NCBI GenBank assembly: GCA_016926175.1
Contig: JAFGPA010000012.1
Span: 1 to 49,691 of the forward strand
From: Candidatus Micrarchaeota archaeon
Lineage (GTDB): Archaea > Micrarchaeota > Micrarchaeia > Anstonellales > Bilamarchaeaceae
DNA: 49,691 nucleotides
Direction of reading: 5' to 3'
How positions within the stretch are numbered: position 1 is the first letter of the stretch; the number at the start of each line of letters is the position of its first letter. The notes under the pieces were generated by a model. That model saw nothing but the letters and a program-made list of their open reading frames with translations. It was not told the DNA's origin and ran no database searches. The translations under genes were made by a program, and so were the position numbers. Below, one piece after another: positions 6,765-14,176 of the stretch.

Positions 6765-7424
6765 GTGAAACTAAAAAACAAAGCAGGGATAAAAAAGGCG
6801 AATTTTGCTTCAAAGGCAGTGCTTGCAGGAATGCTGGCCGCCGCCAGTGCCTCGGCTGCAGAAAAAGAACCTGATGAAACGCAGGTACATCCCATTCTCA
6901 AAGCAGTTGCCGGGGTTTATGACAAAGGAAAGCATCCATTGATTGCATATGGAATCGGAATGGGGGTAGAATACAAAGAAGTTTCCATGTACGGAGAGAT
7001 AGAGGGGTCGGTAAATGAGCTATACGGCAGTTTTCAATTTCCGGTGGGCCGGTTCAGGCTGGGCCCTTTTGCATACAGATCAGATTACTACGAAGTTTCC
7101 TTTGGGGCAGGAATACTTTATGAAATTCCGCAGCTGAATGTTATTTTTTCACCTCATTACCTGCCTGAAGGAAAAACATTCTGCTATCCGGTAAACTGGA
7201 CTTCTTCTGCAGGCAGATTCAATTTTAATCTGGGAATTTCCTATATCCCGGCATATGAAAGCGGTGGGGCAAGGGAAACATATGTTGGCGGAGAGATCTT
7301 AACTGGATTAAATATCAGCGAGGGGGTATCAGTCTTTGGAAAGGCATTTGTTATGGCTGACGCAAATAAAAAGCCGCAGTTAGTTGTTTTGAATGCCCAG
7401 GGTGGATTCCAGCTGGCTTTCTAG
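6765..7424 (+). CDS. Secreted beta-rich protein, outer-membrane-barrel-like
   Basis: Signal peptide ending ASA; alternating Gly/aromatic strands; C-terminus GGFQLAF. Confidence 0.55.
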   Translation: MKLKNKAGIKKANFASKAVLAGMLAAASASAAEKEPDETQVHPILKAVAGVYDKGKHPLIAYGIGMGVEYKEVSMYGEIEGSVNELYGSFQFPVGRFRLGPFAYRSDYYEVSFGAGILYEIPQLNVIFSPHYLPEGKTFCYPVNWTSSAGRFNFNLGISYIPAYESGGARETYVGGEILTGLNISEGVSVFGKAFVMADANKKPQLVVLNAQGGFQLAF

Positions 7425-8044
7425 TCAGATAGTTTTGTCTGGTTGAGATTATCGATTGTTTTCCATCTTGACCTTATGAATGGAACCAGTTTTTTCAGCT
7501 TTTCCCTGTCGTTTAATGCTGCAATGGTCTTGGTATCAGAAGGATAGCCGGACCCGAAATCAAAGGTTGCCTTTTGTATTTCCTGGATTTTTTTATCTCT
7601 TATTATTTTGGCGCATATGGATGCAGCAGCAACTATAGGATAATGATCATCTGCCTTATGTTCTGCCTCGAATTTGGTTGCGCCGAATCTTGCCATCCTT
7701 TCCCTGAACGTCCAGGAATAGCGGTCAGGCATATCGATCATTATATCGCCATCCTCGTTCTTTATAAGATCCGCCATGGCATTTGCCTCTATATCATTAA
7801 GGGACATTTCCTTCATCAGCCTGTTAAGATCTTCTGCGCTGATCTCAATCCATCGAAACTTCACAAATTTCCTGAGCTCCGCATAAAGTTCCTCCCTTTG
7901 CCCGGGAGTAAGTTTTTTAGAGTCTTTTGGCCCGGTTTTTTTGAGGCGCTTTTCATCGTCGCGTTTGCATATGGCACAGCATATTACAAGAGGGCCTATG
8001 ACAGGCCCCCTGCCTGCTTCATCGACACCGATAATATTCATCAA
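7421..8044 (-). CDS. rnhB: Ribonuclease HII
   Basis: GVDEAGRGPVIGP, DSKKL, AAASICAK and GSGYPSD motifs. Confidence 0.96.
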   Translation of the reverse strand: MMNIIGVDEAGRGPVIGPLVICCAICKRDDEKRLKKTGPKDSKKLTPGQREELYAELRKFVKFRWIEISAEDLNRLMKEMSLNDIEANAMADLIKNEDGDIMIDMPDRYSWTFRERMARFGATKFEAEHKADDHYPIVAAASICAKIIRDKKIQEIQKATFDFGSGYPSDTKTIAALNDREKLKKLVPFIRSRWKTIDNLNQTKLSD

Positions 8045-8424: not shown

Positions 8425-9828
8425 TCATGAGGATTTGAAATCAAGAGTATGCAGTCGCCCATATTTCATTTCATATACAGGTACGAGGGCGGGGGTAGGA
8501 ACATGGCCCTGTTTTATCTGGAAATCAGTACGGTCCTGGAATGTTCCGGAATTGATGACAAAAGTGCCGCGATACTGGGTATAGCCGTTTTTATGAACAT
8601 GGCCGCAGTGAAGGACATCAGGAGGCTCTTCCACCACCATATAGTCCACATTTTCAGGGATTATAAGATTTCCTCCATAGAGCGGGGAAAGGTGGCGGCG
8701 TTTCAGGTATTCGGTCATTACCTTCTCCGGATGGGAGTATGAAGTTCCCGGAACCGAGGCAATCATGGAATCTATGGAGGTGCCATGGTACATAAGGTGC
8801 TTTATCCCTTCAATGGAAAAACTGCATGGATTGCCAACCCGGTGGATATCAGATTCAAAGAGATCCTTGCCCATGGCAGGCTGTGGCTCGCCTCTTCTTA
8901 CGGCATCGTGATTGCCAGGGCCAGCTATTACCTCTATATGGTCAGGAAGATCCTCAAGAAAATCATCAAACATCTGATATTGCCTGTAGATGTCTTTGAC
9001 AACAAGATCTTTTTCCTGGTTTGGATAAATGCCTATGCCGTCAACAATATCTCCGGCTATGTTCAGGTATTTCACCTTCCCTGCAAGTTCCTTTGCCTCG
9101 CCCCTGCCGTGGAGCCAGTCTGAGAAGGTATCAAGGTATTTGTCAAGAAAATACCTGCTCCCAAAATGGATATCAGAAAGATACGCTGAAGCAACATCTA
9201 TCTCGGTTCTCTTTTTTTCACGTATGACTGGGAGGTCAGGCCATTCTATTTCTTCTGCTATCAAAAACGGCTCAAGTATCTTTCCTGAAAATGCGACAAC
9301 GTCATCTTTGAGGACGTTTCTGGCTTTTTCCATTGCCTTTTCGTTTGAAACAACGACTTTAAACTGGCCTGTCAGATCTTCAACTTCAAAAAGCAGGTTG
9401 CCTTTTTTTGTTTCCCGGACATCTGAAACAAGTACGATTATCCGGACTTTTTCATTGATGTGCCGCACAACATCGCAAAGATCAATGTTGTCTCCGGTGC
9501 CGCTCCTTCTGAGCATCCTCGATATGCGCTCATACCGGTTGCGAAAATGGCTGACAAAATTGTCAACTCCGCCTTTTGTCCGGGACTTGCCAGTGACATC
9601 AAGCCTGTGATCTATTTTGATATTTGCAGAATATTCCTTTGCAGGCGGACTGAAAAAGGAAGGTCTTTTCACCTCTACATTTATCAGCAAAAGAATGTCT
9701 TCCCTTGATATCAAAGGTTTGCCAAGCGCCAGGATTTTCTGAAAAAGTTCATTGGGGGGGTTTGAAGGCAATACAGCCTCAGCATCAGTTGTAAGCCTTA
9801 TTCCTCTTGCAGATAAATCCCCTATCAT
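8425..9828 (-). CDS. polD1: DNA polymerase D small subunit DP1
   Basis: OB fold, SDIHFGS, AGDIVDGIGIYPNQ, PGNHD, YHG, RRHLSPLYG and HCGHVH. Confidence 0.96.
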   Translation of the reverse strand: MIGDLSARGIRLTTDAEAVLPSNPPNELFQKILALGKPLISREDILLLINVEVKRPSFFSPPAKEYSANIKIDHRLDVTGKSRTKGGVDNFVSHFRNRYERISRMLRRSGTGDNIDLCDVVRHINEKVRIIVLVSDVRETKKGNLLFEVEDLTGQFKVVVSNEKAMEKARNVLKDDVVAFSGKILEPFLIAEEIEWPDLPVIREKKRTEIDVASAYLSDIHFGSRYFLDKYLDTFSDWLHGRGEAKELAGKVKYLNIAGDIVDGIGIYPNQEKDLVVKDIYRQYQMFDDFLEDLPDHIEVIAGPGNHDAVRRGEPQPAMGKDLFESDIHRVGNPCSFSIEGIKHLMYHGTSIDSMIASVPGTSYSHPEKVMTEYLKRRHLSPLYGGNLIIPENVDYMVVEEPPDVLHCGHVHKNGYTQYRGTFVINSGTFQDRTDFQIKQGHVPTPALVPVYEMKYGRLHTLDFKSS

Positions 9829-10064
9829 TTAGACGACTCTAATGCACTTATTATTGCCCAGATCTGCGTTCTGGCATGAGGAGGCATATTGATGTCTTCC
9901 GTAATCGATTCGATGAGATATATTGCTGCGCTTACCTTGACATTGGGCTCTTCATCTCCTTCCAGACGTCCTTTGGCATCTGATAGTGCTTTTCTTATGT
10001 TTTTGGGAATTGTATTGTCATTAACAAGATTATCCAGCATCTCAGTAATATCTTCAAGTTCCAT
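9825..10064 (-). CDS. UPF0147 family protein
   Basis: DNTIPKNIR...D.NMPPHARTQIW.IIS.LES. Confidence 0.9.
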   Translation of the reverse strand: MELEDITEMLDNLVNDNTIPKNIRKALSDAKGRLEGDEEPNVKVSAAIYLIESITEDINMPPHARTQIWAIISALESSK

Positions 10065-10198
10065 AAAATCACCTAAGGATAAGAATACTCTATAATCTGG
10101 TAGATAAGTAATTTAAATCATGGTTTTCCTGTTCTTCACTATTGCACCAGCAACTGCGACATAATATTTATATATGTTGTCTTCTAATTGGTCTAAAG

Positions 10199-10603
10199 AT
10201 GTCCAGTGCACTTACAAAAAGACCCGGCCAATTGGATGCCTGTGAACAAACCAGCCGTACTGTAAAGCAGTCGTTTATCAGGGCAACGGCCAAAACATTC
10301 GGGTTCAGTGATCTGCTGAAGATAAAAATAGCGGAGCTTGAACGGGCTTTTGACAAGGCGATAAGAATCAGACAGAGCGACGGCACCAGAATGCTTGTGC
10401 CCATAAGAGCGCTGGAACTGCATCCTGATGAAAAATCCCGGATAATAAAGGATGCCAGGACAGTTCTGCAAAAAGCAAATGCCAGAATAGCAAGCGATCA
10501 AACAAGCCTGTTTGAAATGAAAGAATCCATAGATGAATGCCAGAAGGCAATCTACAGCATCCACCCGCAACATCTTGCCGGAATATGGAAAATAAAAATA
10601 TAA
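10199..10603 (+). CDS. Hypothetical helical protein
   Basis: Open frame with a TATA-like TTTATA about 30 nt upstream of ATG 10199; no family recognised. Confidence 0.6.
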   Translation: MSSALTKRPGQLDACEQTSRTVKQSFIRATAKTFGFSDLLKIKIAELERAFDKAIRIRQSDGTRMLVPIRALELHPDEKSRIIKDARTVLQKANARIASDQTSLFEMKESIDECQKAIYSIHPQHLAGIWKIKI

Positions 10604-10605
10604 AT

Positions 10606-10897
10606 CGGGCCCGGGGGGAATTTCACAATTCTTAACGATCCTGATTTGAACCGTCTTTTTGATTTGAACCCCCGGCCTACAGCTGCCATCTGCTTCCGGC
10701 TTTCTGTTTCCTGCATCCCGAAGGAAGCCGGAGGGTCAAGGCCGGAAACATTAGAAGGCTGCCGCTCTATCCAAGTTGCTCCTGCAATTTAGCAGGCAGG
10801 TTTTGCCATGCTTCCCGATGGAAAGATATTTCTTTCCACGAGCGCGCCGAACAACGTCCGGTCGCGTTTACTAAAAAGCGGACTGAGCTACGGGCCC
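10606..10897 (-). tRNA. tRNA-Arg(TCT) with three introns (D-loop 10776-10882, 37/38 10685-10751, T-loop 10620-10662)
   Basis: Removing 107+67+43 nt leaves a 75-nt cloverleaf: GGGCCCG TA GCTC AGCTTGGATA GAGC G GCAGC CT TCT AA GCTGT AGGCC GGGGG TTCAAAT CCCCC CGGGCCC G. Confidence 0.9.
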
Positions 10898-10925
10898 TAA
10901 AAAGGAAATTATAATGGGGAAAGAA

Positions 10926-11006
10926 TTAATACTCTTCTTCGTCTTCTTCGCCCCATTCTTCTTCTTCAGATTCGTCATCTTCCCAATCTTCTTCCTCGTC
11001 AAACAT
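10926..11006 (-). CDS. Acidic micropeptide B, MFDEEEDWEDDESEEEEWGEEDEEEY (26 aa)
   Basis: RBS and start read GGGTG-TAATT-ATG; paralogous to the adjacent peptide. Confidence 0.7.
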   Translation of the reverse strand: MFDEEEDWEDDESEEEEWGEEDEEEY

Positions 11007-11016
11007 AATTACACCC

Positions 11017-11091
11017 TTAGAACTCCTCGTCTTCCTCTCCCCAGTCTTCTTCTTCGAAATCATCATCCTCGAGCTCATCTTCTTCGTCCAT
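11017..11091 (-). CDS. Acidic micropeptide A, MDEEDELEDDDFEEEDWGEEDEEF (24 aa)
   Basis: RBS and start read AGGTG-TCCAT-ATG, with a TTTAAAT TATA-like box about 35 nt upstream. Confidence 0.7.
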   Translation of the reverse strand: MDEEDELEDDDFEEEDWGEEDEEF

Positions 11092-11180
11092 ATGGACACC
11101 TTGAACTGGGTATGGTGTGGAAACATTTAAAATCTTACCTAGTATGCCGGATTAAAAATTGGAAATTTTATAAGAGGAAT

Positions 11181-11639
11181 ATGAAATTCGAAAAAATAGG
11201 ATGGAATGAAATTGCAGAGGATTGCAAAAAGCTTGCAAAAATGGTTGATGATAAGCCGGATTTAATAGTTGGTTTATCAAGAGGAGGCCTTGTGCCGGCA
11301 AGGATTTTAAGCGATATTCTGGATACCAAAATGCTTGTCCTTGGAATCAGGTTTTACAAAGGAATCGGAGAAAAAGAAGAAAATCCGGTCATAACGCAGG
11401 AGATGCCAAAAATCCAGGGCAAGAAGATTCTAATTGTTGATGACGTGGCTGATTCAGGAAAGAGCCTTGTAGCTGCAATGGAGTACCTTAAAGGAAATGA
11501 ATTGAAAGCTGCAACTCTGCATTATAAAAGAAGTTCAGAATACCGGCCTGACTATTTTGTCGGAACTACGGATGCCTGGATCATTTACCCCTGGGAAATC
11601 AATGAGATTGAGAGGCTACTTAAGTCTAATGGCCTCTAG
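11181..11639 (+). CDS. Type I phosphoribosyltransferase (purine PRT-like)
   Basis: IVGLSRGGLVP, ILIVDDVADSGKSL and WIIYPWE. The true start is ATG 11181, not 10914. Confidence 0.9.
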   Translation: MKFEKIGWNEIAEDCKKLAKMVDDKPDLIVGLSRGGLVPARILSDILDTKMLVLGIRFYKGIGEKEENPVITQEMPKIQGKKILIVDDVADSGKSLVAAMEYLKGNELKAATLHYKRSSEYRPDYFVGTTDAWIIYPWEINEIERLLKSNGL

Positions 11640-13514
11640 ATCCGCTATTGCCCTTGTATCCTTTCTCATCATTGCGCCAATTGAGCGGGCGAATTCATCG
11701 GTCTTGTTCCAGTCTCCATGCATTGTAAATACCCTTTCCGGAGACGGCCTCAGATTCTTAAGATACGCCATAAGCTGTGCCCTGTCGCTGTGGCCCGAAA
11801 AGCCTTCTGCAGTTTCAACGCGCATGTTGATTTTCAGGGATTTCATCCTGCCGTCATCGCCAAGCATTGGCACCTCTTTCTGCCCTCTCTGGATCTTGCT
11901 GCCCAGTGAAAGCGCACTCTGATAGCCGCAGAATATAAGTGCATTCTTCGGATCATCGGCAAGCAGCTTAAGGTATTCATATGACGGACCGCCTGTAAGC
12001 ATGCCTGATGGCGCAAGTATCACTGCCGGCTCGTCAGGAGCAACGATTTGCTCCTTGTCTGTTCCCTTTGCAACACGCAGTATTGGAGATTCGAAAGGAC
12101 TCCTGTCTGAAAGAATCCTTCTCTGGAGCTGCTCCCTGAGATATTCAGGGTATGCAGTGTGTATTGCAGATGCTTCAAGAATCATTCCATCAATGTATAT
12201 GGGTATGTTGAAGTCAGGGTCCCTTCTTGCATATTCTTCAATAACAAGGAGGAGCTCCTGTGATCTTCCGACAGCAAATGCCGGAATGAGAACTTTTCCT
12301 CTTTGTACGGCGGTTTCCTTGATTATTCTCATCAGCCGCTTTTCTGAATCAAATCGGTTTACAGATATATCATTTCTTCCGCCATATGTGGATTCTATAA
12401 ACATTGTTTCCAGCCTTGGAAACCTGGTATTTGCCGGGTCAAAAAGCCTTGTGAAGCCGAATTTTATGTCTGCAGAATAAACAAGATTGTGGGCGCCTTC
12501 GCCAATGTGAAGATGGACTGATGAACTTCCAAGAATGTGCCCCGCGTTGTAAAGCGTCATTTTGATTTCCGGGGTGATATCCACAACTTCCTCATAATCA
12601 ACAGTTATGACATTTCTGAGTTCTTTCTGGATGTCCTTTTTCTTGTACGGCGCATCAACATTGAAAACCTTGTTGCAGAGATTCAGATAATCCTGCTGCA
12701 AAAGGGCCATAAAATCCCTGGATGGCGGAGTGCAGTAAACCGGGCCTTCATAGCCATAGGCAAACAAAAATGGCAGGAATCCCATGTGATCCATATGTCC
12801 ATGGCTGATCACCACTGCATCAATATCTTCAAGTGAGAATCCGGCCATGTTCAGGTAAGGATATGCTTTTGTAGGATCAGATGTTGCAGGATTGACTCCT
12901 ACATCAACAAGCACCTTGCTGTTGGGGGTCTGTATCAGAAGACATGACCTGCCGATTTCCCTGAACCCTCCAAGTGCCATTACGCGAATCCAGTCGCTTG
13001 AAGGCGGATTCTGGCATATCTTTTTTCCAATATTAATCAGGAATTTTTTTCTTTCGTCAGCTTCTGCCACTGCGCTTTTCCTTACTCCATCCAGCGTTGC
13101 TGAAGGCATTGTAGGGGCACGCAATGTAACCGGAGCCCAGTTTGTCTCAAGCATTATCTGCTTAAGGATTGAGCCTCCTTTGCCGATCACAAGGCCGGGC
13201 TTTATAGCCTCAATCCTTACTTCGCACATTTCCGGAACGAAGGTAATCTTTTTTATCTCGGCTTCTGGAGGAACAACCTGCTCAATAAGCTTCTGGGCTT
13301 TGTCTGTCTGCATGAGCTGGGTTGGATCAACCCTGATTGTTACCTTCTTCTTTAATGCCCCTGCAAGTTCCTTTATAAGGCGGTCATTTTCATAAAAAGC
13401 CCTTATGTTCCTGATATAAATAACTGTTGAAAGCCCTTCAGGCTCTACCTTTGTCACTTCGCAGTTTTTTGGCATAATGTCATTAATCTTTTTTACAATG
13501 TCCTTAAAGTGCAA
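11616..13514 (-). CDS. fttA: Archaeal beta-CASP ribonuclease aCPSF1 (FttA) with KH domains
   Basis: KPGLVIGKGG (KH), SHGHMDH, AGHILGS, ESTYG and GFSGHSD. A TTG start after GGGGTG is inferred. Confidence 0.95.
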   Translation of the reverse strand: MHFKDIVKKINDIMPKNCEVTKVEPEGLSTVIYIRNIRAFYENDRLIKELAGALKKKVTIRVDPTQLMQTDKAQKLIEQVVPPEAEIKKITFVPEMCEVRIEAIKPGLVIGKGGSILKQIMLETNWAPVTLRAPTMPSATLDGVRKSAVAEADERKKFLINIGKKICQNPPSSDWIRVMALGGFREIGRSCLLIQTPNSKVLVDVGVNPATSDPTKAYPYLNMAGFSLEDIDAVVISHGHMDHMGFLPFLFAYGYEGPVYCTPPSRDFMALLQQDYLNLCNKVFNVDAPYKKKDIQKELRNVITVDYEEVVDITPEIKMTLYNAGHILGSSSVHLHIGEGAHNLVYSADIKFGFTRLFDPANTRFPRLETMFIESTYGGRNDISVNRFDSEKRLMRIIKETAVQRGKVLIPAFAVGRSQELLLVIEEYARRDPDFNIPIYIDGMILEASAIHTAYPEYLREQLQRRILSDRSPFESPILRVAKGTDKEQIVAPDEPAVILAPSGMLTGGPSYEYLKLLADDPKNALIFCGYQSALSLGSKIQRGQKEVPMLGDDGRMKSLKINMRVETAEGFSGHSDRAQLMAYLKNLRPSPERVFTMHGDWNKTDEFARSIGAMMRKDTRAIADLEAIRLK

Positions 13515-13543
13515 GAAAAACACCCCTTCAAATTAGAAAAAAA

Positions 13544-14176
13544 TTATGATTTCAAAATTTTATTTACGTATTCTTTGCTCATTCTCTTGAAACCAGATGT
13601 TGTTACGATACAAAGATCAACGCGTTCTCCGCTTGCGGCATCTCTTTTCATTGCAGCGCTCACTGCCTTTGCCGCAACTTCCATGTTGACAATAGTGTCC
13701 TTGTTTTCTTTGTAAAGCTCTTCAAGAACACCGTATGCAATTGGAGATCCGCTTCCCGTGGAAGTAAGATGCTCTTCGGTTAGCCCTCCCATCATATCAA
13801 CAGAAAAAAGTCTTGGTTTATCATCAACTCCCCCTACAAGAAGCTGAACAAAGAACGGGAAAAATTTATGCTGTGCCAGGATGTTTCCCAGCAGTGTAGC
13901 TGCGGCCTCAACACCCATCTGCCTTTCATGCTTTAGCTCATAGAGCTTGATTTCTGCTTTCATCCATCTTACAAGCGTCTGGGCATCACCAACACTGCCT
14001 GCAATTGTCATGGCAATGCGGTCATCGATTTCGTATATTTTGTCAATGTCCTTACTTGCAATGAGATACCCCATAGTCGCCCTCCTATCACTAGCCAGAA
14101 CAACTCCATCCTTACAAACTAGACCTACAGTGGTAGTTCCTGTTTGAACACCCTGGGTTTGCTTCGCGCTATCCAT
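13544..14176 (-). CDS. psmB: Proteasome beta subunit
   Basis: Propeptide followed by G|TTTVG, then ASDRRAT, GSGS and RDAASG. Confidence 0.97.
   Translation of the reverse strand: MDSAKQTQGVQTGTTTVGLVCKDGVVLASDRRATMGYLIASKDIDKIYEIDDRIAMTIAGSVGDAQTLVRWMKAEIKLYELKHERQMGVEAAATLLGNILAQHKFFPFFVQLLVGGVDDKPRLFSVDMMGGLTEEHLTSTGSGSPIAYGVLEELYKENKDTIVNMEVAAKAVSAAMKRDAASGERVDLCIVTTSGFKRMSKEYVNKILKS

Follow-up and report, generated by a model that had tools for sequence, protein, structure and literature searches.

The window examined here is a stretch of 49,691 nucleotides (nt) from a Candidatus Micrarchaeota archaeon of the Bilamarchaeaceae (GenBank assembly GCA_016926175.1, contig JAFGPA010000012.1, positions 1 to 49,691). 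On its minus strand, directly upstream of a tRNA-Arg(TCT) gene, lie two consecutive, very short and hyper-acidic open reading frames (ORFs), ORF1 and ORF2 (Table 1), which are the subject of this analysis together with the family to which they belong. Neither encodes a single Lys, Arg or His. ORF1 opens with MDEEDE and closes with DEEF, and the corresponding ends of ORF2 are MFDEEED and EEEY. A preliminary description of this DNA had noted the two adjacent ORFs without basic residues, a GGTG ribosome-binding site 5 nt before each ATG, a TATA-like box upstream and a tRNA-Arg(TCT) starting 28 nt downstream on the same strand, and all of these features are present. It had also pointed to silent DNA differences in a stretch shared by both peptides: within the common W-G-E-E-D-E-E, 4 of 21 bases differ, all at third positions and all synonymous. 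This pattern has no further occurrence in the genome. Because repeats of the GAA type contain no stop in any of the six frames, an open frame by itself is no proof of a gene, and a plus-strand frame (10914..11639) crosses the acidic tract into the neighbouring phosphoribosyltransferase (PRT) gene. In a six-frame scan of the 1,047,127-base genome, five stop-to-stop frames contained a 15-residue window with at least 66% Asp plus Glu (D+E); ORF1 and ORF2 are the most acidic of these (0.87) and the sole short ones. The pair is beyond chance.

The relatives provide evidence for a coding function. A DNA search covered 41 genomes (the window's own and 40 relatives) and matched 28 of them, including 21 of the 24 that belong to the genus. 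Nearly all the relative loci that were fetched carry one to three tandem ORFs of 23–34 amino acids (aa) at the same place. From these, 44 ORFs were aligned, which come from 26 loci of 25 genomes, among them the window, and two longer forms (59–61 aa) were omitted; the family hidden Markov model recognizes ORF1 at an E-value of 2.0e-6 and ORF2 at 6.0e-5. Over the 28 well-occupied columns, entropy averages 0.48, 0.45, and 1.57 bits at codon positions 1, 2, and 3, and pairwise differences at the same positions amount to 0.159, 0.168, and 0.623 over 23,641 codon pairs. Codon pairs that differ are divided among synonymous changes (5,299), exchanges between Asp and Glu (5,276) and others (5,631). 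In many columns GA is invariant at the first two positions and the third approaches 2 bits, which is near random, while the Trp codon TGG is kept at all three positions and is nearly invariant. This combination of third-position variation with constrained first and second positions is a coding signature. The proposal in the preliminary description that selection acts on the peptide is therefore upheld, given that frame, start codon, Shine–Dalgarno (SD) motif and one Trp are kept in relatives in which third positions are nearly randomized. The same description would have been refuted by a loss of frame, ribosome-binding site and WGEED motif in relatives; frame, SD motif and Trp persist, so that the proposal withstands this check, whereas the Gly that follows Trp in this motif occurs in only 11 of the 44 ORFs. 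Taken at the level of sequence, the comparison establishes that these genes, although almost never annotated in the one Micrarchaeota family in which they are concentrated, are real, conserved and under peptide-level selection.

The consensus of the 44 ORFs reads M-x-P-L/M-R-I-D-E-E-E-D-[W/F]-E-D-D-D-F-E-D-E-x-W-x-E-E-..., with a near-invariant Trp (40/44) inside a W/F-x4-F-x4-W core. As judged from this alignment, the constants of the family are the Trp and the spacing of the aromatic residues. The acidic-aromatic (D/E)WGEEDEE C-terminus, which had been taken as a shared feature of the pair, proved to be local: in addition to the scarcity of the Gly, only 12 of 68 family ORFs end in Phe or Tyr, and 48 end in Glu or Asp (last residues: E 38, D 10, F 6, Y 6, G 3, L 2, Q 2, S 1). 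Copy number differs between the genus and its surroundings. Outside the genus, all 11 genomes examined are single-copy, almost always with W-x4-F-x4-W; within it, one copy was found in 11 of 32 genomes, two in 17 and three in four. In 21 of these 32 genomes an F-type copy, named after its middle residue, stands side by side with a copy of S/T/A/V type, and the window follows this arrangement, with the F-type ORF1 preceding the S-type ORF2. The tandem pair represents a duplication at the level of the genus. The retention of two paralogue types fits distinct roles of the products better than a repeated signal in cis. AlphaFold2, supplied with a 24-row alignment, returned no helix or strand (mean pLDDT 64.3, pTM 0.12), and the peptides are accordingly predicted to be disordered, with no fold.

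The alignment profile was also run over 301 genomes of the phylum and matched in 44. The matches fall in family f1 (41/64 genomes; genus g1, 20/21) and family f9 (2/14), and the other 28 families of the phylum gave none (e.g., f13 0/75, f14 0/54, f6 0/23). Almost all hits are open frames of 26–87 aa, with one to five candidates per genome. Diverged acidic ORFs were also seen at three loci in other families of the order, and the count of 44 among 301 is thus a lower bound. Among the matches listed, the labels of named public records with these peptides read Candidatus Micrarchaeota, Micrarchaeia or Bilamarchaeaceae. Against 1,835,955,588 representative proteins the profile found only 21 matches, all of 29–69 aa and with the same motif. 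When the two window peptides and three relatives were compared with Pfam-A by hmmscan, at E-values up to 10, no family was assigned, the sole row being HRDE1_NRDE3_N at E 3.1, and the best score of an ESM Atlas look-up was 0.81, below the useful range. As far as titles and abstracts of the top full-text search matches show, no such peptides have been described in the literature. Within what was searched, this micropeptide family is undescribed.

Signals for expression accompany the family. An SD-like motif at −14 to −3 precedes 39 of the 44 starts, compared with 8.7% of 43,261 genome ATGs, and GGTG alone precedes 26 of them, compared with 2.3%. At −60 to −26 relative to the first ORF, 21 of 26 loci have a TATA-like hexamer (3.4% of random windows), and the exact TTTAAA is found upstream of the first ORF in 18 (0.9%). 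Beyond the last stop, at least five T within 45 nt occur in 21 of 26 loci, compared with 14.8% of random windows. Judged from their agreement with consensus, these elements would act as promoter and terminator, and the micro-genes probably form a self-contained, well-expressed unit. Since the oligo-T tract follows the last ORF in so many loci, co-transcription of the peptide genes with the tRNA appears doubtful. Two metatranscriptomes from the study of the possible source DNA share almost none of the sequence words, and no RNA contig aligned to 10500–11700, which speaks neither for nor against expression.

The tRNA itself is a neighbor rather than part of the peptide genes. Both ARAGORN on raw DNA and Rfam miss it, and once three inserts are removed in silico ARAGORN calls tRNA-Arg(tct) at full length with most placements of the D-loop junction. 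The three introns lie in the D-loop (~10880–10777, ~104 nt), the anticodon loop (10750–10684, 67 nt) and the T-loop (10661–10619, 43 nt); in relatives, the same tRNA exons follow the peptide genes, and their inserts are shorter or less numerous. Throughout the genus, the peptide genes tend to be preceded by FttA and/or PRT and followed by the tRNA exons and UPF0147. UPF0147 also lies downstream on the same strand at five loci of other genera or named records in which the upstream genes differ. This linkage is not obligatory: in at least six genomes the peptide gene is 11–62 kb from UPF0147. Between tRNA and UPF0147 in the window, a stretch of ~540 nt (10065–10605) holds two long frames without Pfam match (10142..10603, plus strand, and 10193..10573, minus strand); the same gap measures only ~70 nt in one relative, so that the stretch looks like an insertion. 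UPF0147 overlaps the start of the DP1 gene by 4 nt (8425–10064, minus strand), which suggests one operon.

Table 1. Peptide genes, candidate signals and neighboring genes in the window, in minus-strand order.
Feature	Coordinates	Strand	Description	Basis
Proteasome beta	13544..14176		First in minus-strand order	Pfam
FttA/aCPSF1	11616..13523		Termination factor; in minus-strand order	Pfam
PRT	11181..11639	+	Phosphoribosyltransferase, divergent	Pfam
TATA box	11125..11131	-	TTTAAAT, ~37 nt upstream of ORF1 ATG	
SD of ORF1	11097..11100	-	GGTG, 5 nt before ATG; context AAGGTG-TCCAT-ATG	
ORF1	11017..11091 (stop included)	-	MDEEDELEDDDFEEEDWGEEDEEF; 24 aa; F-type paralogue (L..F..W core); D+E 18/24 (75%)	
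SD of ORF2	11012..11015	-	GGTG, 5 nt before ATG; context GGTG-TAATT-ATG; 1 base past ORF1 stop	
ORF2	10926..11006 (stop included)	-	MFDEEEDWEDDESEEEEWGEEDEEEY; 26 aa; S/T-type paralogue (W..S..W core); D+E 19/26 (73%)	
Oligo-T run	10899..10903	-	TTTTT, between ORF2 stop and tRNA; putative archaeal terminator of the peptide transcript	
tRNA-Arg(TCT)	10606..10897	-	Three introns	ARAGORN after in silico insert removal
UPF0147	9825..10064	-		Pfam
PolD small subunit DP1	8425..9828	-		Pfam
RNase HII	7421..8044		Downstream of DP1 in minus-strand order	Pfam

The explanation that we favor, with a probability of roughly 40%, is that these genes are transcribed on their own and yield disordered polyanionic peptides, which would act in trans by engaging a basic surface. 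Each unit would comprise a TATA box, a leader of ~20 nt with its Shine–Dalgarno, one to three tandem cistrons and an oligo-T tract. Each product would be a polyanion of 24–34 residues, with a net charge of about −18 and no predicted fold, and with bulky aromatics at fixed five-residue steps (W/F-x4-F-x4-W). Such a peptide could sit on a partner protein at a strongly basic surface that binds nucleic acids or polyanions, where carboxylates would replace phosphates and Trp/Phe side chains would serve as anchors, and it could thereby compete with, shield or chaperone that surface. Action in trans and electrostatic mimicry are both inferred here. What favors them is a constraint beyond composition, in the Trp, the aromatic spacing and the two paralogue types, together with what seems to be a transcription unit of their own. 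By analogy, the hyper-acidic W/F micro-ORFs of unrelated appearance that occur in other archaeal contexts (see below) suggest that this kind of product recurs.

Several points weigh against it. None of the conserved neighbors is an obvious basic partner, and the most frequent one, UPF0147, itself has more acidic than basic residues by count. UPF0147 is also near-universal in the phylum (294 of 301 genomes, a tally that includes two unpublished ones) and thus provides no phyletic signal; a literature search on it yielded a single paper, which was irrelevant. The window copies belong to a subclade that has lost the N-terminal M-K/R-P-L-R-I segment found in most members, and the position directly upstream of the co-oriented tRNA and UPF0147–DP1 operon is kept in many genomes. 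In addition, runs rich in Asp and Glu at the N-terminus are reported to abort translation in bacteria and eukaryotes (10.1101/2021.02.02.429294; PMC9718836, PMC12673854), and for this reason product yield may be low and a role in cis is plausible.

It is this last effect on which the strongest alternative is built, namely that the ORFs are cis-acting, hard-to-translate leaders of which the peptide is a by-product. Some 20 acidic residues after the start would destabilize the ribosome, whether ribosomes get to the stop near the oligo-T would set the extent of transcriptional read-through into the tRNA-Arg and the UPF0147–PolD small-subunit operon, and the locus would in this way sense Mg2+ or the condition of the translation machinery. 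MgtL is reported to use intrinsic ribosome destabilization as an Mg2+ sensor, with bulky residues counteracting it (10.1101/2021.02.02.429294), and both window ORFs likewise have D/E-rich sequence directly after the initiator Met and, beyond that, along their whole length. The gene order agrees with such a leader, given that tRNA-Arg(TCT), UPF0147 and DP1 all follow the ORFs in the same orientation and that this order recurs in several genera with differing upstream neighbors; so do the short distance from stop to T5 and the presence next door of a gene for the termination factor FttA/aCPSF1, and the periodic W/F and bulky N-terminus could tune the destabilization. However, exact conservation of the Trp, the five-residue aromatic spacing and two paralogue types exceed the needs of a stall that is driven by composition, and one to three copies, each with its own SD, likewise count against a leader. 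A T5 tract after the last stop in 21 of 26 loci does not help it either, nor does an AT-rich TATA-like sequence that at several loci stands between the last ORF and the tRNA and suggests that the tRNA has its own promoter; the genomes in which the peptide gene is remote from UPF0147 add to this, and no report of ribosome destabilization in archaea was met in the literature searched. We regard this alternative as unlikely. Under either model, any translation of such a sequence may depend on its periodic bulky residues.

The remaining explanations fare worse. A bulk physico-chemical role, in which an abundant soluble polyanion without a specific protein partner would serve as a buffer or store for divalent cations, iron or polyamines, or would govern the charge balance inside a very small cell, would suit the extreme charge density. 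The consensus-like promoter and SD may point to high expression, tandem amplification in the genus could raise the dose, and a P-type cation ATPase encoded 3 kb away is a weak hint in the same direction. Yet a buffer has no need of an invariant Trp, a fixed aromatic spacing or a conserved N-terminal motif, and the profile matches are concentrated in one family although the small-cell lifestyle is common to the whole phylum, and we therefore find this role rather improbable. Far less credible still is that the GA-rich tract encodes no protein, its frames being open by chance, and serves as a promoter spacer, a small RNA or a binding site for proteins on the DNA: all six frames are indeed open over it, and there is a weak C/D-box-like Rfam match (E 0.73), but the two Rfam matches lie far below gathering (16 vs. 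42 bits and 14.9 vs. 86 bits), and three-base periodicity, conserved ATG, SD and stop, and an in-frame invariant TGG contradict it. Equally hard to maintain is a LysW-like carrier or substrate of a Glu-ligase, whose EDWGE-like stretch would mark the peptide and whose carboxylates would be used by an ATP-grasp enzyme. The E-D-W-G-E-E of ORF1 and E-E-W-G-E-E of ORF2 do resemble the C-terminal EDWGE of LysW; this candidate was rejected, as there is no Cys in the ORFs or in the 44-member consensus, the motif is internal and its Gly is infrequent. A search for RimK/LysX-type ATP-grasp proteins (PF08443) gave no match in the 93.4%-complete genome, and the same search found them in 13 of 14 control genomes.

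If trans-acting polyanions are indeed what these loci encode, genes of 75–100 bases that nearly every annotation pipeline drops would be conserved genes of genome-reduced archaea, and the fact that 20 of the 21 genomes sampled from the genus keep them, at a genome size of 1 Mb, would imply a needed function. They would also represent an extreme case, a sequence that functions while carrying hardly any information other than its charge and three aromatic anchors. The window copies, which lack Lys and Arg, would be expected to escape tryptic proteomics. The family further offers a natural test case for whether destabilization of the ribosome by acidic nascent chains exists in archaea.

Comparable ORFs were sought beyond the phylum with the degenerate pattern [DE]2-F-[DE]4-W-x-[DE]2 in one genome per prokaryotic species, which returned more than 118 stretches, of which 80 were fetched. 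Among these 80, the bacterial matches are mostly acidic tracts within large proteins, and the archaeal ones include free-standing ORFs of 22–56 aa, most of which end in Trp or Phe. The hosts of these ORFs, among the matches listed, are Nitrososphaerota, Caldarchaeum, Geothermarchaeota, Thermofilum, Sulfolobaceae, Brockarchaeota, Bathyarchaeota, and Thorarchaeota, and at 5 of 17 such archaeal loci, again among those listed, the ORF adjoins the gene for ABCE1. ABCE1 was located in 100 of 101 sampled Thermoproteota genomes, and the 800 nt upstream of it were taken for 94 of them (five genomes with frames of 922–926 aa and one contig-edge case were dropped, and one locus provided 165 nt). A hyper-acidic short frame (e.g., locus L282, 1936–2037, minus strand) is present there in 42 of the 94, on the same strand in 41 and on the opposite strand in one; leaving out the two genomes of the initial discovery gives 40 of 92. 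All 42 frames end in Trp (...EEEW). The distance from their stop to ABCE1 is 43–124 nt, a smaller set having 224–379 nt; at two named Nitrososphaerota loci this wider gap is occupied by an RPB9/TFS-type zinc-ribbon gene. In two such genomes "EEEEW-stop" occurs exactly once per genome, at the ABCE1 site. In one Sulfolobaceae genome, T tracts follow the acidic ORF and ABCE1 has its own TATA box, which suggests that the two are separate units there. No such frame was found upstream of ABCE1 in 30 Asgard and 16 Micrarchaeota regions. One 45-aa Thermoproteota peptide had a single match in 5.8 billion clustered proteins, labelled hypothetical, and a complex prediction for a Sulfolobaceae ABCE1 (600 aa) with its neighboring 34-aa peptide scored 0.00 and gave no answer.

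These observations permit a wider, rather doubtful proposal: that a class of hyper-acidic micropeptides punctuated by aromatic residues (20–60 aa, at least 65% D/E) lies hidden in archaea, of which the Thermoproteota branch would be a trans-acting cofactor of ABCE1, the Fe-S ATPase of ribosome recycling, and a forerunner or analogue of the eukaryotic rule by which an acidic C-terminal Trp brings ABCE1 and other clients to Fe-S insertion, and the Micrarchaeota branch a related case of docking or mimicry on another basic partner. If it were correct, gene callers would be skipping the whole class, and the Thermoproteota branch would be testable in lineages that include genetically tractable relatives of the Sulfolobales. 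A link to ABCE1 for the window family itself was rejected, because ABCE1 lies on another contig with no acidic ORF nearby and the 16 Micrarchaeota upstream regions were negative.

Some further observations were made during this survey. At five loci, Caldarchaeum-type genomes carry an ORF of 35–37 aa ending in EEEEEF beside a gene for a stand-alone Lrp/AsnC ligand-binding domain and MoeA, and not beside ABCE1. Four Anaerolineae/Chloroflexota records contain proteins of 77–79 aa with a Cys-rich N-terminal domain and an acidic W/F tail that matches the micropeptides in composition. On viral contigs, 17 stretches with the acidic F/W pattern were found, all in proteins of other kinds of 50–238 aa; ten of these contigs encode hyper-acidic proteins of 50–104 aa with repeated F/W, unrelated to the window family, and the others larger ones. 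In the five Thermoproteota genomes with frames of 922–926 aa, the ABCE1 homologues match from query residue 55, which suggests an N-terminal extension or fusion. To our knowledge, ABCE1 is usually regarded as universal in archaea. A query with its N-terminal 120 aa matched in all 16 sampled genomes of ten other Micrarchaeota families, and in none of 15, 8, and 1 genomes of families f13 (one of them unpublished), f14, and f17, respectively; a full-length query against five genomes that are 94–97% complete, two of them single-contig, returned only frames of generic ABC ATPases (245–351 aa, E 1e-6 to 1e-11).

Among known systems, MgtL resembles the window locus in being a short D/E-rich ORF, acidic right after the start codon, upstream of co-oriented genes. 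It differs in size and number, acting through ~6 residues (EPDP) within one leader (10.1101/2021.02.02.429294), as opposed to 24–34 residues and one to three copies, each with its own SD, and the window family has in addition a conserved Trp and an oligo-T tract ahead of the next gene. A second comparison is with C-terminal targeting signals: many cytosolic Fe-S clients carry a C-terminal [LIM]-[DES]-[WF]-COO- (PMC10245660), and Lto1, a dedicated adaptor for Fe-S insertion into Rli1/ABCE1, needs its conserved C-terminal Trp, or Phe in some organisms (PMC4523923). The Thermoproteota ORFs share with them an acidic residue followed by a C-terminal W/F (...EEEW), beside ABCE1. However, position −3 is Glu and not Leu, Ile or Met, the deca-GX3 domain of Lto1 is absent here and the window peptides are not beside ABCE1; the tripeptide pattern does not fit the latter either, with ORF1 ending in E-E-F and ORF2 in E-E-Y.

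Other acidic proteins offer partial parallels to the window family. LysW is a small acidic protein with an N-terminal zinc-ribbon of four Cys and a C-terminal EDWGE, the terminal Glu of which is the attachment point; small size, acidity and the E-D-W-G-E motif are common to both, whereas the zinc-ribbon Cys are absent from the window family, the motif is internal and no LysX/RimK ligase was found. Acidic tails that end in an aromatic residue are known from the tip of bacterial SSB and from phage T7 gp2.5, which the ends of the window peptides recall, although these peptides are free-standing and not tails of a folded protein. The suggestion in the preliminary description that they are free SSB-type docking tails is left without its defining feature, given the rarity of a terminal aromatic in the family; nucleic-acid mimicry, chaperoning of basic proteins and metal buffering were its other candidate functions. 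Structured DNA mimics such as Ocr and ArdA present carboxylates in a DNA-like array on a folded scaffold, and a mimic of this type was rejected because no fold is predicted for the peptides. DSS1/Sem1 is a eukaryotic acidic, disordered protein of 70–90 aa that takes part in the proteasome lid, BRCA2 and RPA and binds basic grooves, with reported DNA mimicry. No DSS1_SEM1 row appeared in the Pfam search of the two window peptides and three relatives at E-values up to 10, and we know of no DSS1 partners of the type of PCI-domain lid subunits or BRCA2 in these archaea. Although DSS1 is eukaryotic and two to three times longer, it has in common with the window peptides a high D/E content, Trp/Phe anchors set in acidic runs, and disorder.

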